A stretch of DNA of 64,000 nt, from positions 1-64,000 of the IMG/VR virus record IMGVR_UViG_3300032213_002832. The stretch is one strand, 5' to 3'. This DNA is from a virus. Shown here one piece after another: positions 8,701 to 62,041 of the stretch; position 1 is the first letter of the stretch; every line of letters begins with the position of its first letter. Made by a program: the position numbers and the translations under genes. Under the pieces are notes generated by a model. That model did not search any database. It was not told the origin of the DNA and saw only the letters and a list, made by a program, of their open reading frames with translations.

Positions 8701-10183
8701 TGATACGTTTGTACTCACTGATAATGCTGTCGTACCAACCACTAGTATAGTACTTACAGTTCCAGATGCTTTATCATTCACCTTTGCCACAGGAACAGCA
8801 AATGGTGACTACTTTAAAGGTTTGGTTATCAGAAGTGGTAGAGTAGTTACTCGCTACGCGATTGAATCAATTGGTTTCAATAATCTCTTTAAGCTTCGTT
8901 TGATTGACGGTGATGCTGCTGGTTTTATTGACTGTGGCGCTGCTGTAGATGACCTACTCTCTATATCTGGTGAAACCTTTAATAGTAGTAACTCTGGAGT
9001 ATTCCGTATATTGGGTCTAACGAATGATTCGATAATATTTGAAAACGAAATAGCAACAGAACAATTAGATACAATCGTACCTTTCAATAACTTGGCACTA
9101 AGTGCTACTTGGGTATCAAACTCAAATAGCATAACTGGCGCTGCTGGTGTATTTAAGAATCTAAATATCGGTGACTGGGTTAAGAAGAAAGAAGATCCAG
9201 AAACTCTATATCGTCAGGTGATTGCTAAGAATACCGGTTCATTCGACACTGCTACAATTATCACTCTTGGCGGAAACTATCAGGGCACCACTTCAGTATC
9301 TGTTGGTGTATCCTTTGATCAGAATTCAGATGTTGGTAAAGGGTGTTATCTTCAGGGTATTAATGATATTCAGATATACGAAGGTGACTCTGTTAGGATA
9401 GATGACACGTTGTTCGTTGATAATATATCTAATACTAACTGGTTTAACTCAGTAAATGCTGGGACATTCAAGATTACGCAGATTGGTAGTACAACAGATT
9501 GTAGACCTTTTGTAAGAGTTGATAACTCAGCTGGTTTAACTCAAACCAATCGCTTAATATCAGTGAGCCCTATAGGTTATTTTATAATCGAAGGTATTAG
9601 TAACACTTATAAGAGTATACGTAGAGTAGAGCATACCACTATAGATGGCAGCAATGCTAATAGACGCCAAATATTCTTAACTCCTGCTACGAGAGCATAT
9701 AAAGTATCTCAGACCAACGGTTCTAAAATAGTACCAATTGGTAAACTAGGATATTCAGTAGATATCACTACTGGTATAGATGGTTATAGCTACTATACTG
9801 GGTTGATGAGAACTGTACAGAGAATCATAGATGGTTTTGAACCAGACGCTATCACATATCCTGGACGTAGAGCAATTGGTGGCGTTATAGAAACATTGCC
9901 TCCACTAATCAAGCGTATCACTATGAGTCTACAAGTTACAACTAACGAAGGTGTAAATCTTAATGACGTAACAAATGATATTAAGTCTGCTATAATAAAC
10001 TATGTAAATCAACTTGGTGTTAGTGGTGATGTTATTCTTGCGGAAGTAGTAGTTAGGGTTATGGGCATCATTGGTGTTGAAGCTGTTACGGTTAGTTCAC
10101 CGTTAGCTACAACAGAGGGTAGAATACCTGTCTCTGATAATGAACGTGCGTATATTCAGCCGGAAAATATAAGTGTAGCTTAA
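2705..10183 (+). CDS. Giant baseplate J-like (gp6/gp47-type) wedge protein with about 2000 aa of inserted beta-rich domains
   Basis: N-terminal LDARGADFGLVRTPAQRSTG and DGRDVETDENFRERIK...LARGT are baseplate-J signatures; C-terminal IINYVNQLGVSGDVILAEVV is a J C-terminal signature. Confidence 0.8.
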   Translation: MSIDIRSYNQILGEMVRKIIADTPLNDLNTGSVLLSLLEAAAQNDFENNASILSVLELLNIDATRNNDLDARGADFGLVRTPAQRSTGFITIQDISISKRSTGLYQVKAPPIASSTTIYVNDASNWSLTGNLFIGRGTNSFEGPIPYTNIVNNGSFFTITLGSALQKDHLISDVVVDAQGTTDRLIAAGTSVFIPANNQNPIIEFRTLRDAVIPAGEDTVSGVSIVSLLAGSNNNAGINTITNFTTIPFTGAVAFNTSALSDGRDVETDENFRERIKSYSTTLARGTADAILSSIIGVSDSDDGKQVASASITEPPHLGDPSILYVDDGSGFEPSFEGQSVDILLSEASGNEEFLQLANYPLPRPQVICTAESPYELTDGMTLSVLVDGVEEAITFSTSQFLNISAATISEVIVAINDQSQSFKATFTDTSSKILLFPVNHATELIQVSPLRPTDDPLLFANTILKFPNNEYSYIRLYQNNTLLNEEQKSASLLTTVFSSWNITANGNLVISVDGTPPQDRGFDTTDFGGTPFASLTLSDWVDAFNAKYAGITATATSSGRMQIVSNKDGSSSALSVEGGTYFDKLFSSQATSSLGQNSDFQLNRQTGNIRILTDIAVGDTITAGTDDAKGNFTSTETITGNYNVSSDSNTRPAEIVLVADAKHVTPRYGVGLAIGHTITITDQGSNVMRLMSDSLSSFDAAQPHDFIYIVNRSSGLWVNTANTGLYKVIAKGEHTTASTNSYIEVKNVNIVPGVHTVLAAEDIQIFKSDAYVQLWKGTSTATPPSATIQNIVDTINSNLINVRASIFKTDAIKITSTTEDSGSIALPISVGNATLLFESQQAEKVGNPSHIANRVSSKDAVSFFKITEPTNEDADGVSGKTVWLDRVTYSDQSGVLTSNAVPGVEGVDTYSEELQSTNSLDPAVVDYDDYINNLDGNNKGQYRSIRDKITGDKIGTQHALPRTVMDYSSGDRFNLMRPVSVNSEDSVVLILDQDAVSKTIDIKMSRTGRVSNLPPLTNQSFSADDADNEPGITFNSLPVWGKTANKTEFKDYAVWFRSRNWYVSGGATSGGGAIILRAREYGPHGDNQRFRIEYPTFPNQANTISHNSTPDYALSTYTFGSGVLKATGITAGDTIAVTSLGGDDYRLTFSNPSTDLSTVVADDIISMLNDSGVSTSNRGQYSIKAVDNLLKHVDIYNPNGAVTGAGSPEITDITTIADVVGTKTSSTISSITASAALNGKWFRLTDSAGTVAVYYTTGSIPTPGSLGVNRIIPVTIAGTELAAATAALTAAYIDADPEFTATAITTTVTAINANNGAFAISTDGTTATGFSFAGTLGTSDVSVDGKYFILQDAAGSVAFWYDVSGVTSEPLHGADRAVRIGTVLAGDSANTIATKTAVIIAGDGAYASATVLANVITATDIANGGRPTATAGTSGFTVGQDTAGVNAGPEVINIATSIMIFSLINTAVADIVTKINDDSEVLYAATISGTNPITKATRDEEYTPAGPSDYSVSLSFGHDPDPLSLENGYVKLYDGINWVRQFENTQPNFSLKTAMKLQGVAPTAYSMHNTPNHDSADLGELFKLVPITLNNVNHHFTQKALSQLPIVSNVDISSAIRKVQIKSKELGSAGSVEVVGGNANNIELSVAGEAQVSAGATKDLLEVRTAAFPVTLTKGDYVEVSNTQSAPRASKLKAGDSIDVFKGVGSNTEYRWNYKDTQLGEYVRFTIADTSATYNRPSGTVWRWTHNDGGSYFQIVATANGLPSVAINNEIAAGGTNTVNLKNDSIAPGSVSTKQAFNLTVAGVPTQADYFTFESASGVTFAVWFDINNVGTVPTGATYVAATNKIEVNILSTDTEDQIVSALSIALLGSAAFLAHFSGSQTQGANLDDVEIGDLLCAYGTFASGWSSGNKAKANGDTNIAGLPIINKNVTSRYIDVVNPDGVAMTNQAIGAGNVSIAPTPFIKWNLKHSAKTDIVKITVLAGTATTTTSVPHGLKEGDTFVLTDNAVVPTTSIVLTVPDALSFTFATGTANGDYFKGLVIRSGRVVTRYAIESIGFNNLFKLRLIDGDAAGFIDCGAAVDDLLSISGETFNSSNSGVFRILGLTNDSIIFENEIATEQLDTIVPFNNLALSATWVSNSNSITGAAGVFKNLNIGDWVKKKEDPETLYRQVIAKNTGSFDTATIITLGGNYQGTTSVSVGVSFDQNSDVGKGCYLQGINDIQIYEGDSVRIDDTLFVDNISNTNWFNSVNAGTFKITQIGSTTDCRPFVRVDNSAGLTQTNRLISVSPIGYFIIEGISNTYKSIRRVEHTTIDGSNANRRQIFLTPATRAYKVSQTNGSKIVPIGKLGYSVDITTGIDGYSYYTGLMRTVQRIIDGFEPDAITYPGRRAIGGVIETLPPLIKRITMSLQVTTNEGVNLNDVTNDIKSAIINYVNQLGVSGDVILAEVVVRVMGIIGVEAVTVSSPLATTEGRIPVSDNERAYIQPENISVA

Positions 10184-12379: not shown

Positions 12380-15300
12380 ATGAGTGTACTTGGAAGAATA
12401 CTCGTTGGTAGTGGACAAAGATTAGACTTAACTGATCTTTTATCGATAGATAGTTATGCGGCAGCTGACTTTAAATACCTTATCCAAAGCTTCATCGGAG
12501 CAAGCAAACCATATATCCTATATGGATTAGACGTTATTAATCCACAGGATGCTATTGGTACTGAAAATATTTCTATAAAAATCGCTGACTCAGTAGTTTA
12601 CTATCCTGGTTCACAGGCTGGTTCATTTTACTATGGCCTTAAAGAAGGCGATGTTAATGCGCAACCACTTATACCAGAACTTAGAAAAAATGCGACAAAC
12701 TTTGTTTATTTGACTTTTAGTACCTTTGATACAGCAAAAGATAGTAAAGCATTTTGGGATGCTGATCAGAATGGCGGTGCTGGTGGCGAATTCAGTCAAG
12801 ATGTTAATACTGAAACTGCTCTAAAAATTGAAGTAAACGTTTCCGTATCCACATTTCCAGAAAATACTATTCCAATCTGTAAGGTTGTAGTTGGTTCTTC
12901 TGTAATATCTTCTATTCAAGATTGTAGAGATCACTTCTTCAGACTTGGTACTGGTGGCATATCTCCTAATCCGTTTTCTACATATGATTTCCGAGATGAG
13001 CCAAACTCTACGTATGCTAGATTAGAACCACCTACTACAATGACCTCCGCATTAAATCCAAATCCTTTTAAAGGCGGTGATAAAAACATTCGCACCTTAA
13101 AAGAGTGGATGGATGTTGTAATGACTCGCATCAAAGAACTTGGCGGTACCTCATACTGGTACGAAGGTTCAGGCTCTGCGGGATCTAGTCCGAATGTTAA
13201 CAATATATTTCTTGATGCTCTTGGTAGCACTATTAAATCTAAAGGTGAATGGCAACATTCAAGTATTACTCCGGGAGAGGCTACTTGGACTGAGGACATA
13301 CACTATTATTCTTTGATTGATTCTCGTGACTTAATTATTAGAGCAACTACAATTAATTTACCTACTACTGATAAAGTAGCATGGATTGATATTAATCGTG
13401 GTGTTGATTTTAACGGCGTTTCTGCGCCAGCTGATTGGCAAAATGGCTTAAGTTATATAAATGGTGTAACTGGTACTTTTGCTAACCTATCTCAAGGTGA
13501 TTGGGTTAAGAAAACTGCTGATGCCAACTTATTGTTTTTAAGAGCAGAAGAGTTTTATGCTTCACCAGCACTCGCAGGCGGAACAACAACTCCGGCTCTA
13601 GCTCAATCTGTTAAATTAAGTGGAAACTATGCTGGCATAAGTGGCTCAGAAGTTGGTCAATATACTAAAGGTGAATATCTATTAACAGATATAAATGTAA
13701 CAGATAGAAATGATGCTGCGATTGATGCAGCCGGTGGTAATTTCTTCTGGTTAGCATATAGAAGTGATACATCATTAAGCTTAGCAAGTGCGGTAAGTAC
13801 CACTCTTTCTTTAAATATCACTGACCACGACGGTGAAGTAGCTACATGTACAACAGGTGCTGCTCACGGGTTGTTAGATAAAGATAGGATCACAATAGTT
13901 GGTGGCAGTTTTGCTGGCACATATGTAATTGAATATGAGAGCTCAACAGTATTTACAATTAGTAAAACTAGTGCTCCAATCGCTGATGATCTTGGTAGAG
14001 CAGCATACTATGGAATAGTTACAACTGCTGCTAGAAGTACTACTTATGGCTATGCTCTAGATTCCGCACAGCACGGTTTTAAATCTGGTGAGCAAATCAC
14101 TATCTCCAATGCTGCTCCTTGGAATGGTTCATATATAGTAAATTATCGTACAGCAACTTCTGTACAAGTACCTCTTGGAAGTGCTTTGACAGGTGTTGGT
14201 TCTACTCCAGGGGAAGTTGTAAGTCTTGCGCGCTTAAATGTAAGAACAGAATTTGGTACTGTTAAAGTAGTACAGGGTGAAACAGTAAATATTGGTGATA
14301 TGGATAGTGCTAACCTATTATCATACATTGGCATGGATTCATTAGCACAAACATATCCAGTATATAGTATCCCCAATAGTTATAATGCCTTAAATGGTGC
14401 TCACAACTACAACTCAATGATTGACGACGATTTAACTACACGCGTATCTAGACTCACTGCGATGATGGCAGATAGGGTTCAAGATCGTGGAACACAGATT
14501 GTTGGTCGTACCAATATCACCAGTGTAACAAGTGGCGCAAATCAAGAAATTAGCGCATTAGCTAACCTAACATTAAAAAGACCTGGTAGTTCAGATCAAA
14601 CTATTAATATGACTTCAGCTATTGCTCTTCCAGCTAATAGCGTGATTGTAATTAACATTGATCGAGATAGTGGCGTTGCTCTTACACCAGTTGTTGAGAG
14701 TTGGGGAAGTAGTTTCTTAATATCTGAAAATAAGATAATCTTATTCTATAGATTTAGTGATACAGCAGTATATACTTGGGATCACACTAAGATTGATCCA
14801 TCTGGGCATACAAACCTTCATAAACCAGAAGATGCGCAGAATAGAAATATTTGGGCATTTAATCCAGGTCAGGTAGTACTAAATACTACTAACGACATAT
14901 TGACATTAGATGTTAAGCAGGTATCAGAAGTAACGCGAGTTACAACTTTACCTTTTACTAGCATTGTTCAAAGCAGCTATTTTACATTTGAAGCGATTAG
15001 TTCTCTTGGTGTAATTACACAATATTATGTTTGGTACCAAAAGAACGGCATAGGAACAGATCCTGCGCTAGTTGGTTATACAGGTATTCTTGTAAATACA
15101 ACTACTGGACAAACAGCAGCACAAATTGCGACAAGTACTATTTCGGCAATAAACACAATTGCTGGTACATTAGTTACAGCAACAAACTATTCAGCCGATA
15201 CAGTTTTAATTACCAATGACTTTGTTGGCGCTGTTACAAGTGCGGCAGATGGTGTGTTGGCAACAACCTTCTTAATCAATATAGTAACCAAAGGTTTTAA

Positions 15301-17593
15301 TCCTGACATTGTAATAAACATCTCTGGATCTGCTGATGATAATACTATTGATGTAGATGCTATAAATACACTTGGAACTCTTGCTATACAAGATGGTGAA
15401 TCTGCTTGGATACGAATAAATAGATTTGGACCTAAAACATTCAATACTGTTGCTTTTGCTGATCTTCCAGATACAAATGTTGCTGGTAAGATTTACGTAA
15501 CCGACCATGCCGATATTCCAGTAGATCAAGATGTATTTGTTTTATGGTCACGTATTGGAAATAATATACTAGAAACACATTTTGGCAATCGTCCAGATGG
15601 TAATGTATATGATGAAACATATAATATTAGGACAGTATCGTCTGGAAACTACCAGATTGCTGGGCCGATTTCTGCTACTAGTGAGCTTTCATTACCTCTA
15701 GATAGTCGAGATGGTAGCACTGTTCAAGAGTATGTCGTTGGTTCTGGTCAACTTGAATTATATCTAAATGGTCAATACTTAATTAATGGTGTTGATTGGA
15801 GTGAAGTTGGTACAGCTGGTTCCCTCTCTCGTCGTATTGTAATTAACATTAATTTAGTAGTGGATGATGATTTAACATTCCGCTGTGATGCCCATGGCGC
15901 CGTATATTTTGCTGCGAGTGCTGGCGGTGGTGGTAGTTTACAAGATGCTTATGATAGCGGACGCTTCATAGCTGTTACAACTGGTCAACCAATTGAAATC
16001 ACAGGTACTCCAGGAACTAAATTATTGTCTGTTCAAGGTGATATGGAGGTTACTGGTGTAATTGACCCGGCTGGTATTACTTTTAGCCAAGAAATCTCAA
16101 ATCCTTTTGCCGCTCCAACCGATCATGGTTTGTGGAGAAATGGTTCAGATGAACTTATATATACGCCAGGTAGTAATCCAGATGTAAACATAAGTACGGA
16201 CTTTATTCGTCGTGATGGTTCACATACCATGTTGGCAGATTTAGATCTCAATAGTAATAAGATAACGAATTTAGTTGATCCAGTAGATCCACAAGATGCT
16301 GCTACTAGAAACTATATTGATGGTGAAGTTAATACAATCAATAGCGACTTTGTTCGTGTAGATGGCAGCAATGCCATGACCGCAGATCTTGATTTAGGTA
16401 GTAATCAGATCACCAATCTAGCTACTCCTACATTAGGTACTGATGCCGCTACAAAAGATTATGTTGATACTACTAAAGATAAAGTTACTGTATCATTAAC
16501 TAATACAACTGGTTCCACAATTTTAGCGGGCACAGTAGTATATATAAGTTCAGCAAATAATATTGCGGTTGCCGATGCTGACGCATTAGGTACTTCACTT
16601 GGTACAGTTGGTGTAGTGATATCAAATATAGCCAACACTGCTACAGGTTTCGTACAGGTTTCTGGTCGTGCTACTGTTCTTGGAACATTAACGCCAGGTA
16701 GTATTGCGTACCTATCATCTACGCCGGGTGAAGCTACAACTACTGCGCCATCTGCTACTGGTAAATCGTTAGTATCTCTTGGTATAGCATTAAGTGCGAC
16801 TGAAATTGATGTTAATGTAGAGTTTATTAAAGTTCTTGATAATCCATATGATGAAAGCTATACATTAGTTTCTGGTGCTCCAGGTAATAGTTATGAGTTA
16901 ACTGGTCCAATCACAGCTACCACCAATATAACTCTTCCAGTAGATAGTAGAAATGGTGGCGCAGCTAGAAGTTATGTAGTAGGATCTGGAATAATGCAGG
17001 TCTATTTGAATGGCGAGAAACTTCGTGTAGTTGATGATTGGTCAGAGGTTGGATCTTTTGGTTCATTAAGTACTTCAATTGTAATCAATCAAGATTTGGT
17101 TATTGGAGATTTACTAACCTTCATTATCCAACTAAATGGATCTACAGTTCTTGCTGGTGGCGGTGGTGGTGAAGCCAATACTGCTTCTAACGTTGGCTCT
17201 GGTGCTCAAGTATTCAAGCAAAAAGTAGGTTTAGATCTTCAGTTTAGATCGCTTATATCTACTTCTGGCTTATCTATAACACAAAACACAAACACTGTAG
17301 CAATAGCTACGGCACTAACGACTCGTGTTGTTAGCACGACTACAAGCGTGTTATCAACTGATGACTTATTATTAGTGGATACTTCTGGTGGTGCGGTTAC
17401 ATTAAATTTACCAGCTGCTTCTACAGTTCCAGGTAAGGTTTACTATGCTAAGAAAACTAGCGGTACCGCCAACAACATGATTATTGATCCTGATTCATCA
17501 GAAACAATTGATGGCTTAGCTACTAAAACAACCAACGTTCAATATGAAACCTTTACTTTCGTGAGTGATGGGTCGTCGTGGTGGATTCTTTAA
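12380..17593 (+). CDS. Long modular tail fibre / baseplate-attached structural protein
   Basis: 1737 aa, T/S/G-rich; internal duplications; DAATKDYVD stalk repeats; C-terminal [15 protein letters not shown]...ETIDG fibre domain. Confidence 0.7.
16198..16470 (+). repeat. Tandem ~45-aa fibre stalk repeat (two copies)
   Basis: [25 protein letters not shown]...DAATRNYID vs [25 protein letters not shown]...DAATKDYVD. Confidence 0.8.
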
Positions 17594-34733: not shown

Positions 34734-35420
34734 ATGAGTGATATTGACATACTAAAACTATATATGAAACAAGCCTGTAAGACACCACTACTTACTTATG
34801 CCCAAGAAGTTCAATTGGCTAAGGAGATAGTGGAGGGTAATATGAGGTCGCGTGAAAAGCTTATACACGCTAATCTACGCCTAGTGATCTCTATAGCCAA
34901 AGCTTATAGTAATCGTGGAATGGCTCTTGAGGATTTGATTCAAGAGGGTAATTTGGGTTTGATTAAAGCCATAGAGAAATTCGAATATCAGCGTGGTTAT
35001 AAGTTTTCGACTTATGCTACTTGGTGGATTCGCCAAGCAGTGACAAGATCTATCGCCGACAAAAATAGATTGATTAGATTACCTGTACACATGGTTGAGA
35101 CCTACAATAAAGTATCTAAAGTAGTTAGCTTATTCGTAACTGAGTTTGGTAGAAGTCCAACTCATAAAGAAATAGCTGAGAAGTCTGGGCTTTCGGTCGA
35201 AAAAGTTAACGATGTAATCAATTACGGTGCCCCTCTCGCAAGTATTGATGATATTTTGATGGAAGATTCTGACGTAAGATTTAGTGATATATTATCTGAC
35301 AATAACTCACCTATATCCTCCTTTATGGAAGACTCTATGAATACTGTTGTCTTTTCATCTCTAAAAGAATTATCTAGCCGTGAAGAAAAAATATTAAGAT
35401 TAAGGTTTGGTATAAAATAA
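34734..35420 (+). CDS. RpoD-like sigma-70 factor with regions 1.2-2-3-4.1 and no region 4.2
   Basis: [48 protein letters not shown]; ends [16 protein letters not shown]-stop. Confidence 0.92.
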
Positions 35421-35443
35421 ACAATATTAATTTCATTGGGTTA

Positions 35444-35671
35444 GTGATGAAAACTTTAATTTTATTGGGCGAAAATAGAACATATTTAGGTTATAAAATC
35501 TTCTCTACTGAAGAGAAACTTGATTTATTCATAGATAAAATCCATCCACTAATGATGGCCAACATTCTTGGCGAACTTCCATTAAAACAGAGACTTGAGA
35601 TAGTTAAAGATGACTATTTCCCCTATGCAGGGTTAGTATTTGATTTCGAAGTTATAGAATTACCTTCCTGA
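35444..35671 (+). CDS. Hypothetical protein
   Basis: 75-aa ORF after sigma; no HTH. Confidence 0.45.
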   Translation: MMKTLILLGENRTYLGYKIFSTEEKLDLFIDKIHPLMMANILGELPLKQRLEIVKDDYFPYAGLVFDFEVIELPS

Positions 35672-35701
35672 AAAATTCACAAAAACCTCTCTATACCTTA
35701 C

Positions 35702-35820
35702 ATAAATGCACTTTAGTGCATTTATAACATTACACACGCATGCGTGTGTAAGAAGAGTAGTGTAACTTAGTGTGAGAAATCTAGAAGAGTAGTCTAGTAT
35801 AGTATAGAATAGTATTGTAG
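35702..35820. repeat. Intergenic cluster of palindromes and direct repeats
   Basis: ATAAATGCACT-tt-AGTGCATTTAT (35702-35725); perfect 22-bp palindrome TTACACACGCATGCGTGTGTAA (35730-35751); AGAAGAGTAGT twice (35751, 35783); TAGTA-like pentamer run. Confidence 0.85.
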
Positions 35821-35923
35821 GTTGTTGTTAGATTCATTGTACCCGCGACGAAGCACTTTTTTAGTAAAAAATAAAAATAAATATTTTATGTATAATGCAC
35901 TCATTAATGTTATGGAGATTTTA

Positions 35924-37167: not shown

Positions 37168-37709
37168 TAAAAACATGTATTAAATGTGAAAATCAAATTG
37201 GCAATAAAAATAGTAGTGGCAAGTGTAGAAAGTGTTATAAAACAGACTACGAGAAAAAATACTGTATAAACAGGTATAAAACTGACAATTCTTTCGCACA
37301 AAAACAAATTATTCGTGCTCTTAATTATTACGAAGATAATAAAAAAAGTGTTCTTGAATATAGGGCTAAGTATCGTTTTGTAAGAGAAAAAACAGATATT
37401 TCTTTTAAATTAGCTAATTCTTTACGAACCAGATTAACTCATGCGGTTAGAAATAACCAAAAAGTTGGTTCAGCTGTAAAAGATTTGGGTTGTTCTGTAG
37501 ATGAACTTAAATCATATTTGTCTTCTAAATTTACAGATAATATGACTTGGGAAAACTATGGCAAATGGCATATTGACCACATAAAGCCACTAAGTAGTTT
37601 TGATCTGGCAAATAGAGATGAATTGTTAAAAGCTTGTCACTATACTAACTTACAACCTCTTTGGGCTGAAGATAACTTAAAAAAGGGAGCAAAAGATGTC
37701 ATTTCATAA
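37164..37709 (+). mobile_element. Free-standing HNH homing endonuclease gene upstream of the chaperonin
   Basis: MTWENYGKWHIDHIKP...ACHYTNLQPLWAEDNLKKG; paralogue of 29557..30225. Confidence 0.85.
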
Positions 37710-39411
37710 AACAAAAAGTAAACAAATAATTGCGGATAAGACTCAAATACGTGATCTTGTTCATAAGACTATGGGTGACATGGCAGCAATCATTGGCTCT
37801 ACACTAGGACCCGGTGGTTCTCCTGTACTAATTGAGCGAGATGGTTTGTCACCTCTTGTAAGTAAAGATGGAGTCACTGTAGCTAAAAATATTGGAGTTA
37901 CAGATGCTGCGGCCAACACTATCATCGAGGCTGCTAAAGAGATATGTTTAAATACAGCTAAAGAAGCGGGTGACGGAACAACTACGGCTATCGTACTAGC
38001 TGATGCTCTAGTTAGAGAAGGACAAAAGTTTCTATCTACAAGACCTAAATATAATCCGCAACGAATGATTAATGAACTTAATGAAGCATACTCAAAAATC
38101 GTATTGCCATACTTAGAAAAAGTAGCCACAAAAGTTGATAAAGAAGAACAATTAAAATTTGTAGCCACAATCTCTGCTAACGGCGATAAAAACATTGCTG
38201 AAGTTGTAGTTAAGGCAGTAATGGATGCGGGAGATGATGGTACTGTTCTTATTAACGAAAGCCAAGGTGGTAAAACCTACGTTGAAATAAGTGAAGGCTA
38301 TATTGTAACTACTGGTCTAAAAGACCTAGGCCAAATCGGTCCTGCTTTTATTAACGATAAGGCAAATCAACAAGTAAAAATGGATCAAGGTGTTGTTGTT
38401 CTATATGATGGAACAATGAATGATCTTAAGGTTCCAGGACTAATTCAAGCGGCGGTTGCTGATGAAGGTGGCTTTTCAGATGGAACACCTATCATTGTGT
38501 TTGCTCATGGTTTTGCGGATAGCGTTCTAGATAAATTCGCTAAAACAACCAAAGGCGGGCTAACAGTAGTACCAATCAAAACCCCAAGATCAGGACTACC
38601 TAATGGAGCCTCTATGTTTCTAGAGGATATGTCCGTGTATACCGGCGCAAAAGTATATAACCCAAGCAATGTTGAAGAACTTAACGAAGATGGTTTAGGT
38701 GATTTCGAAAATGCTACAGTAAACCTATACGAATCGTTTATATCTGCCACTCCTGATCCAGATGCTGTTAACTCACGAGTACTAGAACTTAAAGCTATTT
38801 CAGATGCCGCAATGGGAGAATTAGATCGATCATTCTTAAGAGCAGCAATAGCTAAATTGACAGGTGGTGTATCTACCATTCACGTAGGTGGATCTTCTGA
38901 TCTTGAAATACGAGAGAAGAAAGCCCGTGTTGAAGATGCTGTAGAAGCTGTTCGCTCAGCTATAGCCGAAGGTATAGTAGCTGGTGGATGCGCATCACAC
39001 CTAACATTATCCCTTATCCTAAAAACTCACGAAGAAAGAACAGAAGCCTGGTCTATTCTTGCTGACGCACTATTTGCTCCATTTAAACTATTATTAAAGA
39101 ACTGTGGTGAGGATTTTGATGATGTTTGGTCTAAATATGGAGTTAATGTTCTAGTTGCTTCTAAGGGAAGCTATAAGTTACCAGAACAGGTGTTTGACGC
39201 CAATCTACATGAAATGGTAGATCCGTTAAAAACCGGAATCATCGAACCTGCTAAAGTTGTTAGAGTTAGTATTGGCAACGCGCTCTCTGTAGCTTCTCTT
39301 TTGACAACGTTAGGTGGAATTGTGGTTGTTCCGCGGGATATAAGTATGGAAGGCCAAGCTGAGTTAGCACAACAAGCTTTCAAATCTATGATGGAGACAG
39401 TAAATGATTGA
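37696..39411 (+). CDS. groEL: Phage chaperonin GroEL-like
   Basis: STLGPGG, KDGVTVAK, GDGTTTA, ATISANGD, EKKARVEDA, EGIVAGG, GIIEP. Confidence 0.93.
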   Translation: MSFHKTKSKQIIADKTQIRDLVHKTMGDMAAIIGSTLGPGGSPVLIERDGLSPLVSKDGVTVAKNIGVTDAAANTIIEAAKEICLNTAKEAGDGTTTAIVLADALVREGQKFLSTRPKYNPQRMINELNEAYSKIVLPYLEKVATKVDKEEQLKFVATISANGDKNIAEVVVKAVMDAGDDGTVLINESQGGKTYVEISEGYIVTTGLKDLGQIGPAFINDKANQQVKMDQGVVVLYDGTMNDLKVPGLIQAAVADEGGFSDGTPIIVFAHGFADSVLDKFAKTTKGGLTVVPIKTPRSGLPNGASMFLEDMSVYTGAKVYNPSNVEELNEDGLGDFENATVNLYESFISATPDPDAVNSRVLELKAISDAAMGELDRSFLRAAIAKLTGGVSTIHVGGSSDLEIREKKARVEDAVEAVRSAIAEGIVAGGCASHLTLSLILKTHEERTEAWSILADALFAPFKLLLKNCGEDFDDVWSKYGVNVLVASKGSYKLPEQVFDANLHEMVDPLKTGIIEPAKVVRVSIGNALSVASLLTTLGGIVVVPRDISMEGQAELAQQAFKSMMETVND

Positions 39412-54153: not shown

Positions 54154-54715
54154 GGTCTCTGAGAAATATTTAAGACGCTATAAAACAGCTGGAGCTATTG
54201 GCGAATCTGAATCAAGCAAGCTATATGAGCTACTCATGATAGGTTACTCTTTTAGTGACATCCATAACCAATACCCACAATATCCTATGGGTCAAATTAT
54301 ACTAACAGCTGCACTTCGTGGTTGGTGTAAAGACAGAGATAAAATGATGGGAACCCTGCGTGATCGAATTCAGGCTAGGGCAGCAAAGAGTATTATTGAG
54401 CAAGTAGATTTTCTTACGTCCATGCTCTCTGTAGCTAATGTACAACATTTAGACGCTATGCGTAAATATATATTAGATCCAGTAAATAATCCATTACCTA
54501 AATTACTCATTAGCGATATTAAGGAATACAAAGAGGTTGCTGAAACTCTAAATAAGTTAATATCTGGTACATCTTCTGGTGGAAAAAAGAGCACAATGAT
54601 GGATGCTGTATCCGCACAAGCATCCACTAGTAAAATAGAAAAAACAGCTAATAAACCACAGGGTAAAGTTTTAGATATTAGACAACTAGATATGGCTAAT
54701 GAAGATGACGAATAA
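54092..54715 (+). CDS. Putative terminase small subunit
   Basis: Helical, HTH-like N-terminal half; overlaps the TerL start; start moved to ATG 54092. Confidence 0.55.
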   Translation: MGLKRYLNPDQRFGLTEQEIKVSEKYLRRYKTAGAIGESESSKLYELLMIGYSFSDIHNQYPQYPMGQIILTAALRGWCKDRDKMMGTLRDRIQARAAKSIIEQVDFLTSMLSVANVQHLDAMRKYILDPVNNPLPKLLISDIKEYKEVAETLNKLISGTSSGGKKSTMMDAVSAQASTSKIEKTANKPQGKVLDIRQLDMANEDDE

Positions 54716-56705
54716 GAAACCTAAAAAGGCTAAGACACAAAAAGTAGAGACTGTTAAGCATAAGGTAAATATTTTAAAAACACTCACTATAGAACAGCGC
54801 ACTGAGTTGTTTTTTCGCATTTGTAAGACAAGAGCAGAACTAAAAGCCTGGATTAGGTTGTTCTTGGGTCTGGATATGCCAGATACCACTGTTTCTCGAT
54901 ATGCAGATACAAATCCATTGGATATCATATGGCTTATATATGAAATATGTGTACTTGAGAAAAATCCAGACAATATAGAAGAATTATTATGCGTAGCTGG
55001 AAGGGGTAGTGGAAAAACCTTGGCTGTAGCTATAGCCGAATTTATATTATTATTCCATGATCAAAGAGATGTTGCTCACGTAGGGGCAATTCTTTCACAA
55101 GCTAAGCGATGTTATCAGTATCAGCAGGGCTTCATGCTTAGCGAAAGAGTTAAGCCAATATTAAGCCAATCAATCGACGGTTTTCCTGTCATGGAAAAAA
55201 CAACACAAGAAAAAAGCTCATTTAATGTTAGAGATAGAAAAACAGGCGAACTAGTTAAGATAGACCTAGAAGTATTACCTTGTACACTTAAGTCGGTAAA
55301 CGGTTTTCACGGCGCATTTGTATCCGTAGATGAGATTGATACGGTTCAAGGCGAAGGCGTGAGAGCATTCCAAGATATTTCCGGTATGCTGGATTCCAAG
55401 AGAGGTCGCAAGTCTCTCCGTGTTGGTATATCGACAAGGAAAACACGAAATGGGTTGATGAATCAGCAAATTGAGGATGCTGATGCTCAGGGTAGAACTG
55501 TTAAAAAATGGACAGTTTTAGAGTTCAGTGAACGTTGTCCAGATGAAAGATCTGGAACTACACCTACAGTTGGCTATTATCTACAAGATTCTATGGAAGT
55601 AATCTCTGAAGAATTGTGGCTTAAGAAAGACCCTAAAAAGCAAGAAGAATATAGCAGACAAGAGTTTGCTGGGGAAGGATGTTTAAAATGTCCGATGGCA
55701 GCATTGTGTCTATCTGACGCAAAGAAACAGACGTCTAAATCTCCTATGTTAAAACCAATCTCTGACGCAATTAAGAAAACTAGAGAAAACGGAGCAGATT
55801 GGGCAATATCACAGCTTTATAACTTAAAACCCTCTGTTGAAGGTATCGTATATAAAGAATTTGATGAAAAGGAACATGTTAAAGACTGGAACCAAATGTG
55901 GTTCGTACTTACAAACCAAGAATTTCCTGGTGAGTGTACCCATGATATCTTCGTCAAAAAATGCCATAGTATGGGATTATCTTGTTATGCTGGCATTGAC
56001 TGGGGATGGTCTAACCCTAGTACTGTAGTTTACTTTTTTGTAGATAAAAGAGAAAACATATATGTGGTACGTTGCGAAGGTAGGACGTACACTAATAACC
56101 CAACATGGGCACAGATTATAAAGAGCAAATGGCAACATATGTATCGATGCCAGCTTTATCTACCTGACTTAGCAAACCCCGGCGATGCTCAGACTATGAG
56201 ATTCGAGGGGTTACCATGTCCATCTGAACAACTTAAAGATACCCCTGGTGGTATACAAGTTATTAAAAAATGGCTAAAAAGCTTAGCTTCAATAAATACA
56301 AAGATATTCTTTGCAAAAGAAACATGCGGACCAATAATCACCGAGTTCGGTCTATACCACTTTAAAACAGATGCTGCTGGTAAGATCACTGATGACGTAG
56401 AGAAAGAGCATGATCACTGGTTGGATGCGCTCAGATACGCAATGTACCATTTATTTGGTAAGAGTTCAGCAATTGTTGGTGATGATGACTTTGACATTAA
56501 GAGTTCAGCTTTCGATAGAAATGGAACCTACTCCAGAATGCCCTCTCCTGAAGAATTTGCTTTGTCAAAGAATATCAAAATAAACCCAGACATAACTCAA
56601 GATAAGAGTAAATTAGGGCAAATTGGTACTAAACATGATCTAGATAATGATGGCAATGACGATGATGGGATAGGTGGTAATGGAAGTTTCTTGTGGTCAA
56701 TATAG
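54699..56705 (+). CDS. terL: Terminase large subunit
   Basis: AGRGSGKT, VSVDEID, GIST, GIDWGWSNP, DHWLDALRY. Confidence 0.92.
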   Translation: MKMTNKKPKKAKTQKVETVKHKVNILKTLTIEQRTELFFRICKTRAELKAWIRLFLGLDMPDTTVSRYADTNPLDIIWLIYEICVLEKNPDNIEELLCVAGRGSGKTLAVAIAEFILLFHDQRDVAHVGAILSQAKRCYQYQQGFMLSERVKPILSQSIDGFPVMEKTTQEKSSFNVRDRKTGELVKIDLEVLPCTLKSVNGFHGAFVSVDEIDTVQGEGVRAFQDISGMLDSKRGRKSLRVGISTRKTRNGLMNQQIEDADAQGRTVKKWTVLEFSERCPDERSGTTPTVGYYLQDSMEVISEELWLKKDPKKQEEYSRQEFAGEGCLKCPMAALCLSDAKKQTSKSPMLKPISDAIKKTRENGADWAISQLYNLKPSVEGIVYKEFDEKEHVKDWNQMWFVLTNQEFPGECTHDIFVKKCHSMGLSCYAGIDWGWSNPSTVVYFFVDKRENIYVVRCEGRTYTNNPTWAQIIKSKWQHMYRCQLYLPDLANPGDAQTMRFEGLPCPSEQLKDTPGGIQVIKKWLKSLASINTKIFFAKETCGPIITEFGLYHFKTDAAGKITDDVEKEHDHWLDALRYAMYHLFGKSSAIVGDDDFDIKSSAFDRNGTYSRMPSPEEFALSKNIKINPDITQDKSKLGQIGTKHDLDNDGNDDDGIGGNGSFLWSI

Positions 56706-56811: not shown

Positions 56812-58749
56812 ATGGGCTTTTTTGATGATCTAACTAAAGGTATTAAAGGCGCCTTATTAAACGATATTAATGAGTTATCTAAAGGCGATGGCAACAAAGT
56901 CATTGATAAGCCACAACAACTACCCGAAAACGAAGGTTCAATAGGTCAAAAGGCTATAATTGACGATCCCTTCTTTGACCAAGTACAGCAACATTTTATT
57001 TTCAGAAACAAAGTATCTCGCATATCTAATAAAACCCTAAAAAGTGTCTCTATGAGAGATTGGGTCGTATCTGCAGCTATACAAGCTAGATGTGACACAA
57101 TGCTGCGATTTGCTCGTCCTCAGCACAAAATGTTTGAGATGGGTTTTAAAATACGCAAGAAAAATCATACAGAAGATCTATCGGTAGAAGATCGTGCCAT
57201 GATTGACAATCTACAAGATTTCATCTATCATTGCGGACGTAAAGATAATGTCCCTCCTGGCGATGAAATGAATTTTGGTGAATTTTTAAAACTATGTACT
57301 CGTGATGCTTTAACATTTGGTCACGTTGCTATTGAAAAAGTACTAACTCGTAAAGGTAGTCTTCATCGTTTTAGACCAGTACCATCAGAAGCTGTATACA
57401 ATATCAACTCTAAAACTAGTAAAGACATTATAGCTAAAGAGATTACAAATGCACGAAAAACTTATAAAATTAAGCAAAACTCTGCAAATACTAATAATTC
57501 AGCTGAATCAGTACAACAATATAATGAACCACCAATAGATTACTACAAATATGTTCAAATGTCGTATGATGAGCGCGTTTTAGCGGCATTCGGTAATGAG
57601 GATATGATATTTAAGCTATTTAATCCACAGAATTTTGCAGATTCTATGGGGTATTGCTATTCACCACTTGAATTAGCTATTATCAATGTTACTAATCACT
57701 TAAATGTCGAAAACTATAACTCTAACTTCTTTACCCATGGATATGCAGCAAGAGGCATCCTACATTTAAAAGGTGCTGTTACTCAATCCCAACTTGCCTC
57801 ATTCCGTCGTCAATTTTACAATTCTATATCTGGTACACAGAATGCTTGGCGAACACCAATTATTGCTGGTATAGATGAAGTTGATTGGGTACCAATGTCT
57901 GGATCTGCCAAAGAGATGGAGTATCTAAACTACAACAACCACGTTATACGTGCTATCTGTACTCAATTCCAAATCGACCCAGTAGAACTAGGCCTAGATT
58001 ACCTAATAAGCGGTACAGGTCGTTCTTCATCACAGCAAGCTAATAATGAATACAAGATCAACTACTCCCGCGAACGTGGTTTGATCCCTATTCTAATGTT
58101 GTTTGAAGACATGATGAATGCTAATGTCTTACCAGCTATCGACCCTGAGATAGCTAAAAAGTTTGAGTTTAAGTTTACTGGTATTGATGAAGAATCTGCT
58201 CAAACAAATGTTGCTTTACAGCAAGCTCAAATGACCGTATTCTCCACAATGAATGATCTTCTTAGAGGCGAAGGCAAAGAACCAATTAAGCATGAAGTGG
58301 CGAACCTACCACTTAACCAAACCTTCTGGGCCTTAGTAGAAAAGAATATGACACGCGGAGAGATTCGTGCAACATTCTTTGGAGATAAGGGTGCAGATAA
58401 GAGAAGAGAGTTACAATATTTACCAGCTGATCCCGCATTTCTTAGCTGGCAACAGCTACTATTAACCATAGACAGTCAGAAGAAACAAGCTGAAGCGCAA
58501 CAACAGCAAGCTGAACAAGAAGCACAACAAGCTGCTCATGATCAAAAAATGGCTGAAGCTAAACATAATCGCGAACAAGAGATGCATGATTTGCAAATAG
58601 ATGATCATAAGAATCGTCAAGCTCATGCAGCAGCAGGCGGTCTTTCATTAAAAGATGCAGCTAAACAATTTGGAGCTGGATCTAAAGCTATAAATATTGA
58701 TGGACAATCAACATCAAATCCAATAAACTCGGACTTAGCAGATACATAG
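56812..58749 (+). CDS. Portal protein
   Basis: Follows TerL; GYCYSPLE, YNSNFFTHG..ARGIL, NAWRTPI, KEMEY, FQIDPVELG pattern of SPO1/Twort-like portals. Confidence 0.88.
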   Translation: MGFFDDLTKGIKGALLNDINELSKGDGNKVIDKPQQLPENEGSIGQKAIIDDPFFDQVQQHFIFRNKVSRISNKTLKSVSMRDWVVSAAIQARCDTMLRFARPQHKMFEMGFKIRKKNHTEDLSVEDRAMIDNLQDFIYHCGRKDNVPPGDEMNFGEFLKLCTRDALTFGHVAIEKVLTRKGSLHRFRPVPSEAVYNINSKTSKDIIAKEITNARKTYKIKQNSANTNNSAESVQQYNEPPIDYYKYVQMSYDERVLAAFGNEDMIFKLFNPQNFADSMGYCYSPLELAIINVTNHLNVENYNSNFFTHGYAARGILHLKGAVTQSQLASFRRQFYNSISGTQNAWRTPIIAGIDEVDWVPMSGSAKEMEYLNYNNHVIRAICTQFQIDPVELGLDYLISGTGRSSSQQANNEYKINYSRERGLIPILMLFEDMMNANVLPAIDPEIAKKFEFKFTGIDEESAQTNVALQQAQMTVFSTMNDLLRGEGKEPIKHEVANLPLNQTFWALVEKNMTRGEIRATFFGDKGADKRRELQYLPADPAFLSWQQLLLTIDSQKKQAEAQQQQAEQEAQQAAHDQKMAEAKHNREQEMHDLQIDDHKNRQAHAAAGGLSLKDAAKQFGAGSKAINIDGQSTSNPINSDLADT

Positions 58750-58770
58750 TTTTTAGTATAATATTAATAT

Positions 58771-58812
58771 ATAACGTGTATAGACATAATTAGTTTATGC
58801 ACGTTATTTTAT
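58771..58812 (+). terminator. 15-bp hairpin (two G-U pairs) with T-rich tail after the portal gene
   Basis: ATAACGTGTATAGAC-ataatta-GTTTATGCACGTTAT. Confidence 0.6.
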
Positions 58813-58882
58813 ACACTTATTTTATTTCATGATGTGTATAATTATTGAGAATAATCTGTCTTAAAGATAAGAGGTGCTAGTA

Positions 58883-59809
58883 ATGGCGTGGGTTATATGC
58901 GAAGGTTTAGATAGAGTTGGCAAGAGCACAGTTGCCGAACTGTATAAGCGACAAGGATTTCAGGTAATCCACATGTCGGCACCTAATAAGAAATATAAAC
59001 AACCAGGATACTCTGGACCATCATATTTAGATGAAATACTAGATATGTTAATGGAACATGACGGTAAAGACGTATTCTGGGATAGAAGTTGGTATGGCGA
59101 ATCTTCTATATGGCCTCATGTCTATGGTAGAGAGCCAGCGCTTTCAGAAGACGAATTAGAAATTCTTCAAGAATATGAAGAGCGAAATGAAGCTCTTAAA
59201 ATTCTAATGACTGACCCTAATACAGAAGCACATTGGAAACGATGCGTTGAAAACAACGAGCCATTGACACACCCGCAATTTCGTTTAGCCAATAGTCTGT
59301 ACGCAAAACTTGCACATAAGTATAACTTTGTGCCAAAACAATTGAGTGACTTTAACCATGACATTAGTAAACCTAAAGCAAAAAATGATGAACAAATTAG
59401 TAATGTTGATTCTGAAGTATCAGAAAACACAAAAACTAACAATACTAGAAAAGACATCGTTACTAGCAATATTAGCATCGTTGCGAATACTAAACCTATT
59501 CATGAAAAAAACTCCGGTCTTGAAAGACTCGAAAAAGCTAACGCAATTTCAGCAATCCTCAGCAAGCGCCTTATTAAACAAAGAGGCGATGCGTTCGACG
59601 AACTCGAAGGAGAAGTTACCGACTTCCTTAAGGGACGATTGGAAGAACTTTTAGGTGCTAAAAAGGCTTCTACTCCCTCATTTGCAGAAGAAGAGATTGA
59701 AATACTCAAGGTATTCTGTAAACGTTTAATGGAAAAAGAAAAAGAATCGCAAAGTGTACAGACAAATGTAAGTAAAACCTCTATTAATAGACAACCAATC
59801 AGGAGATAG
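58883..59809 (+). CDS. Thymidylate/dNMP kinase-like protein with C-terminal extension
   Basis: ICEGLDRVGKST P-loop; WDRSWYGE; start moved to ATG 58883 (SD GAGG). Confidence 0.8.
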   Translation: MAWVICEGLDRVGKSTVAELYKRQGFQVIHMSAPNKKYKQPGYSGPSYLDEILDMLMEHDGKDVFWDRSWYGESSIWPHVYGREPALSEDELEILQEYEERNEALKILMTDPNTEAHWKRCVENNEPLTHPQFRLANSLYAKLAHKYNFVPKQLSDFNHDISKPKAKNDEQISNVDSEVSENTKTNNTRKDIVTSNISIVANTKPIHEKNSGLERLEKANAISAILSKRLIKQRGDAFDELEGEVTDFLKGRLEELLGAKKASTPSFAEEEIEILKVFCKRLMEKEKESQSVQTNVSKTSINRQPIRR

Positions 59810-59810
59810 T

Positions 59811-60380
59811 ATGACTAAGCGTTTCAATAAGACTAAGGGTGAGCGTTTTCAACAAGCAGAAACCGGAGTTAGCCAATTACAAATGGCCACAAGAGTCACC
59901 CAAATGCTCCTAAAGCAAATGGGCGAATCTATAACTTCAATGTCTAGAGATTTTAATGAACTAACTGCTCGTCAGCGCGATCTGCAATATAAAGTCTTAG
60001 CAATTCAAGAGCTTTCTGGTTTAACTGAAGACCATGTTACTAAACGCGCAGAGTCATTGCAGATTAAGGATTTTGAAGAGACCTCTGCTAAAGAAGATCT
60101 TGCCGTAGGCGCAACGGATGTAGCGGAAGTTGCTGACGATTCTGTTGTAATTTTGACATCTAAACTAGCTTCTGGCGGAGGTATTCTTAGAACTAGATTA
60201 AACGTATCAGAGATTGGATTTCCACAATTTAAACAAGACCTTTTAGGTAAAAAAGTAAATGATACTTTTGATGCAGATATTAACGGAACTACACATAGTA
60301 TAACTGTTCTTGGTATTAAAAAGTTACCAGCAAAGGTAGAAAATGTTGAAGGACAAGAACAACCAACCTCAATCAACTAA
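59811..60380 (+). CDS. Coiled-coil protein with GreA/GreB C-terminal-like (FKBP-like) domain
   Basis: N-terminal heptads; C-terminal DLLGKKVNDTFDADINGTTHSITVLGIK resembles GreA LLGKxxGDxV...xIxxI. Confidence 0.5.
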   Translation: MTKRFNKTKGERFQQAETGVSQLQMATRVTQMLLKQMGESITSMSRDFNELTARQRDLQYKVLAIQELSGLTEDHVTKRAESLQIKDFEETSAKEDLAVGATDVAEVADDSVVILTSKLASGGGILRTRLNVSEIGFPQFKQDLLGKKVNDTFDADINGTTHSITVLGIKKLPAKVENVEGQEQPTSIN

Positions 60381-60783
60381 GAAGATTGATTCTAGATGCC
60401 CTCGCCAGCTAGAGTGTTTACCAGATACCTGGTGCGCCCTAGCGGTCCAGCGTTTAAAAGCGCTAAGACATGCTGGCAGAGAACTCTCGGAAGAAGAAGA
60501 GGCAAAACTCCCAGGTTGCCCCTACGCTACCAATCATCAACTAGCTAATTACTGCTTTTTCAAACTAGTCGAAGAATTCCTTCCAGAAGGAAGAAGTTTC
60601 TCTGATATGGAAATAGCTCATTTTCTAAATATATCTACCGATACTGTTAAGAAGGTTGAGAAAAAGGCTATTCAGCGTATTAAGAATTCGCCAGTATTCA
60701 GAGAAATAATAGATATGCATGATGGTGATCAGATTATGGAAGAAACCACTGATTTTAGAGAATCTGACCATACTAAAGAGTAG
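60343..60783 (+). CDS. Cys-rich protein with a sigma-70 region-4.2-like HTH
   Basis: Five Cys in the N-terminal half; SFSDMEIAHFLNISTDTVKKVEKKAIQRIK aligns with RpoD TLEEVGxxFxVTRERIRQIExKALxKLR. Confidence 0.65.
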   Translation: MLKDKNNQPQSTKKIDSRCPRQLECLPDTWCALAVQRLKALRHAGRELSEEEEAKLPGCPYATNHQLANYCFFKLVEEFLPEGRSFSDMEIAHFLNISTDTVKKVEKKAIQRIKNSPVFREIIDMHDGDQIMEETTDFRESDHTKE

Positions 60784-60853
60784 CTTACACAATTAAGCAC
60801 CATTCCTGTTAAAATAAGAGGTAGAATTACTATATCTCTTAAACAGGTAGTTA

Positions 60854-62041
60854 ATGTCTAATAAGAAACAACTAGAGTTCGACTGCATCGCCGGATCCCA
60901 AGTTAGGGATACACAAGGCGAGATGCTTGACGTTGCCGGTGCTGATATATCTCATTTAGAACAAGGGCTTGGTCTTTGGAATGATAATCACGGTGCTGGG
61001 TACTTTAATACATTGGGTCGTATAACTTCAGCAAAGAAGATCTTTAAAGCTGAAGATTGTGAAAATGATCGACAGAGATATTACTGGGAAAAAGTAAAAA
61101 GCCCATACATATATGCTCGTGGCTATATGTTTGATGACGACCATCCAAACGCTAAAGCAGCGGCAGCCATATTAAGAAACATACATAATACTGATAGTCC
61201 ACTAAAGTTAAAAGCCTCTGTTGAAGGGGGTGTGATTGCTCGTGGTATTAATGATAGTAGCCTCTTAGCAAGAACCAAAATAACCAAAGTAGCCATTACA
61301 TTCACTCCTGCCAACAATGCCACCCTAGTTGAACCACTTAATCTAGATAAATCAAGTACTTGGGAACAAGACGAGATATTGATCAAATCAGTAATGCACC
61401 TTGCGAAAACAGATATCCCATCTTTTAGGCATATTACGCGATATGCCTCTGCAGAAAAGATTATAGATAATTTTAATAAAATTCGCAATATCGCTAAAGA
61501 GGCTGGCTTGAAAACACAACTACCCGAATATACTACTGATACTTTGATTCGCGAAGCAGTGTTAGAAAAAGTAACTGGTAACATTAATAAAATCAATGAC
61601 TTAATAAAAGGCAAGATTATACCAGGTACGACTGAAGATGTATTTCCAAAAACAATAGGCGCAATGAAGTTAGATGGTGACGATGTTGCTACTATGAGAC
61701 ATCATCAGCAACTACATCAAGCAGCCGCACTAAAAGATCCTACACATTCTGGTCGACTATATCATCAGGGGCAAATCAAAGAAATAGATGACCACATAGC
61801 TAAACTAAATAAAGCCCTGACTGCTGGCTATGGCGGAGCAGGTTCTCCCACTTCTATGACTGGCGGCTCTGTAATTCAATCAGAAGCATTGGATGATGGT
61901 AGGGGGAATGGTCTTAAGTATATAACATGTAACAACTGTGGTAAAGAACAAGTCTACATGAAGCACCAGGTTAAGTGTAGGTCCTGCAACCAGCATTACC
62001 CTATGTCTACACTATACGGTGTAATGGTTAAGAATAAGTAA
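60854..62041 (+). CDS. Prohead protease with C-terminal capsid-N-arm-like segment and Zn ribbon
   Basis: RDTQGE, NDNH, KASVEG, KVAITFTPANNAT (HK97/herpes-type serine protease); CNNC...CRSC. Confidence 0.85.
   Translation: MSNKKQLEFDCIAGSQVRDTQGEMLDVAGADISHLEQGLGLWNDNHGAGYFNTLGRITSAKKIFKAEDCENDRQRYYWEKVKSPYIYARGYMFDDDHPNAKAAAAILRNIHNTDSPLKLKASVEGGVIARGINDSSLLARTKITKVAITFTPANNATLVEPLNLDKSSTWEQDEILIKSVMHLAKTDIPSFRHITRYASAEKIIDNFNKIRNIAKEAGLKTQLPEYTTDTLIREAVLEKVTGNINKINDLIKGKIIPGTTEDVFPKTIGAMKLDGDDVATMRHHQQLHQAAALKDPTHSGRLYHQGQIKEIDDHIAKLNKALTAGYGGAGSPTSMTGGSVIQSEALDDGRGNGLKYITCNNCGKEQVYMKHQVKCRSCNQHYPMSTLYGVMVKNK

Follow-up and report, generated by a model that had tools for sequence, protein, structure and literature searches.

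Sigma factors whose promoter-recognition functions are shared by two polypeptides, one for the region-2 side and one for the region-4 side, have been described as two-subunit or split sigmas, namely gp55 with gp33 in phage T4, gp33/gp34 in SPO1, SigO-RsoA in B. subtilis and Sig7-Sig8 in Tn916 (bioRxiv 10.64898/2026.10.01.756105). These systems are cut between sigma-2 and sigma-4, and several of them stem from phages or mobile elements. Here we report on a related arrangement in the IMG/VR virus record IMGVR_UViG_3300032213_002832, a complete phage genome of 167.5 kb with direct terminal repeats and a GC content of 37%, whose first 64 kb (positions 1 to 64,000) form the window of this study. 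Within the window, the gene of P0002 (60343..60783, plus strand; assigned from the open reading frame (ORF), its translation and homologs) codes for a protein of 146 amino acids (aa) that joins a four-cysteine (Cys4) domain to a sigma region-4.2-like helix-turn-helix. The gene of the RpoD-like sigma factor P0001 (34734..35420, plus strand) lies 25 kb upstream; its product of 228 aa has regions 1.2, 2, 3 and 4.1 only, as seen from Pfam and from its family clusters.

As in the two-subunit sigmas, the promoter-recognition functions of one sigma would be distributed in P0001 and P0002 over a region-2 side and a region-4 side, and the pair is of phage origin. The cut, however, lies inside domain 4, between regions 4.1 and 4.2, and the sigma of this phage is of the primary type and keeps regions 1.2 to 4.1, whereas the known systems divide between domains. 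The small partner brings a Cys4 domain with it, the genes lie 25 kb from each other without clade-wide co-occurrence, and the pair is known from sequence and prediction. Sigma domain 4 is treated as one folding unit, which holds the beta-flap and reads the -35 box. Full-text searches of the literature returned two-subunit sigmas split between domains 2 and 4, and nothing on a split inside domain 4 or on proteins combining Cys4 with region 4.2. This comparison suggests that the split within domain 4 together with a Cys4-bearing partner is what is new relative to the two-subunit sigmas already known.

Region 4.2 of RpoD/SigA (PF04545) is homologous to P0002 over the helix-turn-helix and the C-terminal tail helix, but P0002 stands alone, without regions 1 to 4.1, and its -35-contacting positions are changed. 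The WhiB-like (Wbl) iron-sulfur proteins, which bind region 4 of sigma-A, are small and have four cysteines like P0002, and they occur also in phages. Their cysteine motif is C-xn-C-x2-C-x5-C, from which the spacing C-x11-C-x27-C-x11-C of P0002 differs, and P0002 unites the cysteine domain and the sigma-4.2 motif in one chain. A Whib match was not obtained for P0002 with Pfam; WhiB:sigma-4 entries were among the weak rows of a Foldseek search, matched via the sigma-4 chain, and the Cys4 domain had no significant match among solved structures. OrbS, a sigma of the extracytoplasmic function (ECF) group, is described as carrying a cysteine-rich on-board iron sensor near region 4.2 (PMC9023288), hence also a cysteine-rich, metal-related element attached to sigma region 4. 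By that description, on which this comparison is based, OrbS differs in being a complete sigma with the cysteines as an extension.

Complementarity of the truncated sigma factor and P0002

An earlier reading of the window from its letters and open reading frames, here called the sequence-only reading, had proposed that the C-terminal part of P0002 corresponds to the segment missing from the sigma 25 kb upstream. This correspondence was borne out: P0001 ends at the junction of regions 4.1 and 4.2, and P0002 supplies the 4.2-type match. When the whole 167.5-kb genome was compared with the Pfam model Sigma70_r4 (r4), model positions 2-22 were found at the C-terminal end of the sigma and positions 25-49 in P0002. 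The genome held no further region-4.2-type match; the sole third r4 match was the region-3 helix-turn-helix of the sigma itself. BLASTP against a full-length SigA of 359 aa aligned the sigma to residues 88-312 (50% identity) and residues 80-115 of P0002 to residues 312-347 (E 0.002). By these alignments, sigma and P0002 abut at one residue of a normal sigma and cover its regions without overlap.

Other origins of the missing segment were considered and rejected. The 400 nucleotides (nt) that follow the sigma stop codon (35421-35821) contain neither a 4.2 segment nor an r4 match, only an unrelated ORF of 75 aa, a content that rules out a hidden 4.2 exon, a frameshift or an intron past the stop. 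A split intein or trans-splicing was discarded as well, as no Hint match was present at the end of the sigma or at the start of P0002.

The family of the sigma comprises about 30 clusters at 50-94% identity, all of 228-237 aa and none with r4. All members stop within 3 residues of the motif 'FG[IL]', and L213, R216, E218 and K219 of the 4.1 helix are invariant. Because about 30 clusters have a uniform length, a common end point and invariant residues in the 4.1 helix, the truncation is, judged from this pattern, functional and not decay. The 4.1 helix itself (residues 212-228; 35367-35417, plus strand) hardly differs from the bacterial consensus. In IMG/VR, numerous further RpoD-like phage sigmas likewise stop after 'LRLRFGL', with an acidic tail of about 25 aa behind it. 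The two groups of truncated sigmas stood apart in the tree, and the approximately unbiased (AU) test did not reject a single clade, and with it a single origin of the truncation (p 0.378).

Domain structure and family of P0002

The frame at 60343-60783 is open on the plus strand and gave the same translation as in the sequence-only reading, whose description of the protein (a sigma-4.2-like C-terminal part, a cysteine-rich N-terminus and a recognition helix unlike that of RpoD) was upheld on all three points by the following results. Residues 90-114 (60610-60684, plus strand) match positions 25-49 of the 50 positions of Sigma70_r4 with E 2.4e-4 and 21.0 bits, which is below the curated PF04545 cut-off of 24.1 bits. 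The same model was matched by 27 of 115 superfamily members (E <= 0.01; best 1.9e-7) and was by far the commonest, other Pfam families being matched by at most 5 of the 115 each. A superfamily profile compared with region 4 of bacterial SigA in hhalign gave a probability of 87.8% (E 3.3e-6) over residues 80-127, a homology that spans the helix-turn-helix of region 4.2 and the C-terminal tail helix. Pfam, hhalign and the BLASTP alignment to SigA agree on a region-4.2-like helix-turn-helix with a C-terminal helix at residues ~85-127 (60595..60723, plus strand). The helices of region 4.1 are not in the P0002 chain; the Cys4 domain precedes region 4.2, only r4 positions 25-49 being matched. P0002 is without a Sigma70_r2 match in Pfam and therefore, as far as domain content tells, no sigma factor by itself.

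The Cys4 domain covers residues ~16-79 (60388..60579, plus strand), as indicated by conserved cysteines and by an AlphaFold2 model with a mean predicted local distance difference test (pLDDT) score of 90. Candidate ligands of a metal are C19 (60397), C31 (60433), C59 (60517) and C71 (60553), in the pattern C-x11-C-x27-C-x11-C. Of 133 superfamily members, 121-132 keep each of them; C25 lacks such conservation. The model, built from a diverse alignment (mean pLDDT 90.2), has helices at residues 32-44, 50-54, 72-79, 88-95, 99-114 and 117-125. The positions that contact the -35 element in RpoD ('TRERIRQ') differ in P0002 ('STDTVKK'), as read from the sequences, and within the clade S98, K104, E106 and K107 of the recognition helix are kept at 90% or more. 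Structure comparisons gave no described relative: Foldseek against the PDB returned no match at E <= 0.001 for either P0002 model, a wide search with VIA-align reached Z scores of only 3.4 and 2.7 with no solved structure like the whole model, and the best match of a sequence-profile search of the PDB was RpoD region 4 with E 0.1. A search of the ESM Atlas recovered only the viral family of P0002 itself, in clusters automatically named 'sigma-70 region 4 family protein'. Judged by the domain matches, P0002 genuinely derives from sigma region 4.2, which is joined here to a Cys4 domain.

The family is large, with more than 230 homologs at 55-80% identity (90%-identity clusters) and 197 representatives in a library clustered at 50%. 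Among the isolated phages in INPHARED no match to P0002 was found (tblastn, E <= 0.01), and PHROGs held no family for P0002 or two distant superfamily members. Some relatives have unusual architectures. In the metagenome homolog P0243 (504 aa), the third conserved cysteine ('LPGC|') is immediately followed by a LAGLIDADG intein; inteins are usually placed at the most conserved, functionally critical sites. The distant members P0278, P0286, P0288 and P0291 (about 200 aa) have an extra acidic stretch and a conserved C-terminal motif 'LHR..K.DLYGLYSKK.L', which by its sequence recalls clamp-binding tails. Tandem sigma region-4 helix-turn-helix repeats occur in the metagenome proteins P0270 (647 aa) and P0340 (1915 aa): Pfam recognised seven Sigma70_r4 stretches in the former, and with the profile of the P0002 family there were seven matches in P0270 and 14 in P0340.

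A sister system in jumbo phages

The same division of the r4 model was encountered on jumbo-phage contigs, where the end of a truncated sigma takes up positions 1-18 and an ORF of its own, ~75-95 aa long and 50-140 kb distant from the sigma, takes up positions ~18-50. These mini-proteins have four cysteines in the pattern C-x10-C-x4-C-x11-C, and their motif is 37% identical to region 4.2 of SigA. In the family phrog_351, the sigma covers positions 477-690 and the sister mini-protein positions 693-724. The sister Cys4 and 4.2 family was found at 238 IMG/VR loci. Mini-protein and a sigma ending after region 4.1 were together in the same genome in 4/4 complete genomes and in 7/13 partial genomes or fragments (G014-G017 and G040-G046, with three duplicate contig records counted once).

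A profile of the close P0002 family did not reach the sister genomes, and a broader one was required. Compared with each other, the sister family and the P0002 superfamily gave an hhalign probability of 92.5% (E 4.8e-7), with the helix-turn-helix and the second, third and fourth of the four conserved cysteines in register. The Cys4 domain precedes the helix-turn-helix in both, and the C-x11-C spacing of the third and fourth cysteines is shared. The sister proteins differ from P0002 in their length of 75-95 aa, the lack of a 23-residue insert between the second and third cysteines, the truncated sigma alongside in all four complete genomes and a location among replication genes, between PhoH-like and helicase genes and outside the head module. 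The smaller homologs appear to serve as the missing sigma part in jumbo phages.

Predicted docking and proposed role of P0002

The co-folding that the sequence-only reading had called for was carried out for the pair, with residues 120-228 of the sigma, residues 12-130 of P0002 and three controls. Docking was predicted with a score of 0.61 versus 0.00 for the best of the three controls; in a benchmark of the score, the mark of 0.61 was attained by 58 of 80 solved complexes and by 2 of 110 mismatched pairs. Agreement of the runs in their contacts was 54% or more, and the partner had a pLDDT of at least 70. In the predicted interface, residues 212-228 of the sigma face residues 72-80, 85-97 and 102-119 of P0002. 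The contacting sigma residues 216/217, 220/221 and 223/224 form one helical face, including hydrophobic residues of the normal sigma-4 core. This outcome has two sides: docking was predicted for the pair and for none of the controls, but because sigma-4 structures have already been solved, the pass may express likeness to, or memory of, these structures rather than binding.

We regard it as an evenly balanced proposition that P0002 acts in trans as the sigma-4.2 module of sigmas devoid of one. P0002 would bind the RNA polymerase holoenzyme via a sigma without its own region 4.2, which in this phage would be the RpoD-like sigma encoded at 34.7 kb. The region-4.1 helix at the end of that sigma would pack on both helices of the P0002 motif, so that a sigma-4-like domain would be rebuilt from two chains. 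The clade would already have had the module when the truncated sigma arrived, and the module would then serve as the missing part. In relatives without that sigma, the module would act alone or pair with a different protein, for which the region-2-only mini sigma of the clade is a possibility. Recent fission of one gene was rejected as the origin of the pair, P0002 being clade-wide. Since P0002 is older in the clade than the sigma, it is more likely that an incoming truncated sigma recruited a module already in place than that one gene underwent fission.

Distribution in relatives and promoter architecture

Several observations weigh against the proposal of a trans-acting module. Four relatives, 91-100% complete, have P0002 homologs (52-65% identical) and no RpoD-like sigma, and in none of the four was a 4.1-like segment found. 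Because these near-complete genomes keep P0002 without the sigma, the function of P0002 cannot depend on this RpoD-like sigma. A sigma without region 4.2 can also work alone in vitro (PMC3173786). P0002 sits in the head-morphogenesis module in 56/56 loci, unlike the sister mini-proteins among replication genes, and its recognition helix is far less RpoD-like than that of the sister family. In the structure model, helix 72-79 of P0002 occupies the place where the 4.1 helix might sit.

The promoters point in the same direction. Boxes of the type GTA[TGC]AAT are 4.7-fold enriched in intergenic DNA, and 24 of them point at gene starts; upstream of these 24 oriented boxes no -35 box was found, the information content staying below 0.3 bit anywhere from -45 to -1. 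Two GTATAAT boxes in the window (58756 and 58836; 58756..58842, plus strand) are, by the intergenic enrichment, candidates for -10-only promoters upstream of the three-gene unit that includes P0002, and a GTAGAAT box lies between P0002 and the protease gene (60821..60827, plus strand). The three boxes (58756, 58836 and 60821) recur at the same intergenic places in relatives without an RpoD-like sigma (L008-L060); this promoter class is therefore independent of that sigma. As no -35 element accompanies the GTATAAT boxes, a -35-reading role is not seen at these promoters.

In the light of these data, the picture of two halves of one split sigma, as drawn in the sequence-only reading, is wrong for this lineage, P0002 being a clade core gene that is present in four complete relatives without an RpoD-like sigma. 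The co-occurrence proposed as a check fails for P0002 and the RpoD-like sigma at the level of the clade and holds for the homologous sister pair in the complete genomes. The first of the two models in that reading, complementation of the truncated sigma in trans, keeps the abutting homology, the predicted docking and the sister co-occurrence on its side, and loses the two-halves picture and the reading of a -35 box at the GTATAAT promoters. Within the lineage, the IMG/VR contigs that carry the sigma are too short or run in the wrong direction to show whether both genes are present, and a 54.5-kb ENA contig probably has the two together. Among further genomes, a 13.5-kb locus around a 51%-identical truncated sigma (half of that contig) held no ORF with Cys4 and 4.2. 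Scans of distant superfamily genomes for Pfam r2 and r4 gave mixed results, one genome having a complete 224-aa sigma and one nothing detectable.

Alternative functions of P0002

A core gene that persists throughout the clade with or without the sigma might instead encode a stand-alone metal- or redox-sensing DNA-binding regulator in the head operon, a late activator or early-promoter repressor with its own operator and no part in a sigma. We judge this explanation unlikely, with a chance of being right that is nevertheless appreciable. It would fit the conservation of the recognition helix within the clade, and Gram-positive phages encode sigma-4-like late activators of the RinA/ArpU type beside their packaging genes. 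A candidate operator is the exact 14-mer TGACACTGCTACGC, which occurs outside the window 7 times in early-region spacers (129846-143223 of the genome, minus strand), 6-34 nt upstream of AACCGA[AT]TCGA (CCGAT) boxes. Each of six related genomes, with protein identities of only ~50-60%, has 1-6 copies that show a strand bias, so that all 7 genomes have 1-7 copies; the reversed pattern, used as control, had 0 matches. The distance of the 14-mer from the CCGAT boxes is, however, variable and the 64-kb window has no copy of it, and a regulator of this kind would leave both the exact complementarity with the sigma and the co-occurrence in the sister family unexplained.

A different partner for P0002 is offered by the clade's mini sigma. 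In the relatives, a sigma-like domain consisting of region 2 only forms the C-terminal end of a head-module protein of 500-600 aa. This phage has that protein in two pieces 43 kb apart, both outside the window (68838-69650 and 112116-112520 of the genome), and the mini sigma is here a separate ORF of 134 aa (112116-112520 of the genome). P0002 could be the sigma-4 partner of the mini sigma in a two-piece sigma resembling gp55/gp33 of T4, possibly in the capsid, a reading that we consider distinctly improbable. The mini sigma extends only a little beyond region 2 and lacks region 4, PHROGs places it in sigma-factor families, both genes are tied to the head module, and both were present in 5/5 clade genomes tested. 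The CCGAT-type sites, on the other hand, show no fixed upstream element, and more distant genomes with superfamily members yielded no mini sigma, which may be masked there by divergence.

Phage promoters that are -10-only across the clade, with or without a phage sigma, would also suit a putative sigma-4 mimic or appropriator, as the second model of the sequence-only reading had it for the beta-flap. Such a protein would take the beta-flap or, in the primary sigma of the host, the 4.1 helix, with the result that host promoters dependent on a -35 box would be switched off and the -10-only phage promoters favoured, AsiA-like in effect. The near identity of the helix that P0002 is predicted to grip with the bacterial consensus and a conservation of P0002 as strong as that of the portal would fit a conserved host target. 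Yet late expression from the head module would be an odd time for host shut-off, and an intramolecular region 4.2 could be displaced only by remodelling, of which there is no sign; the probability of this reading is accordingly slim. Hardly probable at all is a head-assembly or packaging protein, either a small-terminase-like DNA-recognition factor or an internal ejected protein with the helix-turn-helix as a mere DNA-binding motif: even in very distant members the gene keeps its place between portal and protease or MuF-like protein, and the three ORFs upstream of the large terminase included no recognisable small terminase, but the helix-turn-helix, together with the C-terminal tail helix, resembles sigma region 4.2 specifically, no packaging family of Pfam or PHROGs matches P0002, and small terminases have N-terminal motifs as against the C-terminal helix-turn-helix of P0002.

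Genomic context

P0002 was correctly placed between portal and protease in the sequence-only reading; two further genes separate it from the portal. The large terminase gene terL (54699-56705) is followed by the portal gene (56812..58749, plus strand; PF04860 at 8.6e-25, phrog_12), by two genes for proteins of 311 aa (58874-59809) and 189 aa (59811-60380), together 58874..60380 on the plus strand, by P0002 and by the gene of the head maturation protease (60854..62041, plus strand; phrog_1028 at 3.4e-9), with a scaffold-like protein and the major head protein downstream of the latter. The start of P0002 overlaps the end of the 189-aa gene by 38 nt, and the two upstream genes probably share a transcription unit with it. 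The order terL, portal, 311-aa gene, 189-aa gene, P0002, protease and scaffold was found in 56/56 related IMG/VR loci, across which P0002 is 48-78% identical, above its two upstream neighbours, and the portal 54-85%. Superfamily members at ~25-30% identity still adjoin portal and protease or a MuF-like protein. Because the order is fixed in all of these loci and the position is kept in such distant members, P0002 is a core head-module gene of the clade.

The 311-aa protein begins with a P-loop-like motif 'GLDRVGKST', resembling a nucleotide kinase, and is kept in all 56 related loci; it had no Pfam or PHROG match. The window also carries a chaperonin gene (Cpn60/TCP-1, 37696-39411) and two giant ORFs at 2705-10183 (2492 aa) and 12380-17593 (1737 aa).

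Conclusions

The proposal of a trans-acting module can be carried further. P0002 would then act as a 'sigma-4.2 cartridge' that is portable and depends on metal. Encoded in the head module and perhaps brought in by the capsid, it would snap onto the universally conserved 4.1 helix of primary-type sigmas, the truncated one of the phage and possibly that of the host after displacement of its region 4.2. A sigma domain made of two chains could have its -35 recognition swapped, blinded or made redox- or metal-sensitive during infection. This extension is decidedly doubtful. Even if no sigma were bound, a sigma-4.2-derived, predicted metal-binding protein that is fixed in the head module of a whole clade needs explaining. 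If it is true that phages routinely build sigma domain 4 from two chains, of which one is a Cys4 protein, this would be a new way to re-program bacterial RNA polymerase, and the pair would be a natural split sigma for synthetic gene circuits. It would also account for the 'truncated' phage sigma genes, hundreds in number, that may be marked as broken in annotation pipelines, and would give a function to a large unannotated phage family that is represented by more than 230 clusters at 90% identity, 197 representatives of 50% clusters and 56 IMG/VR loci.

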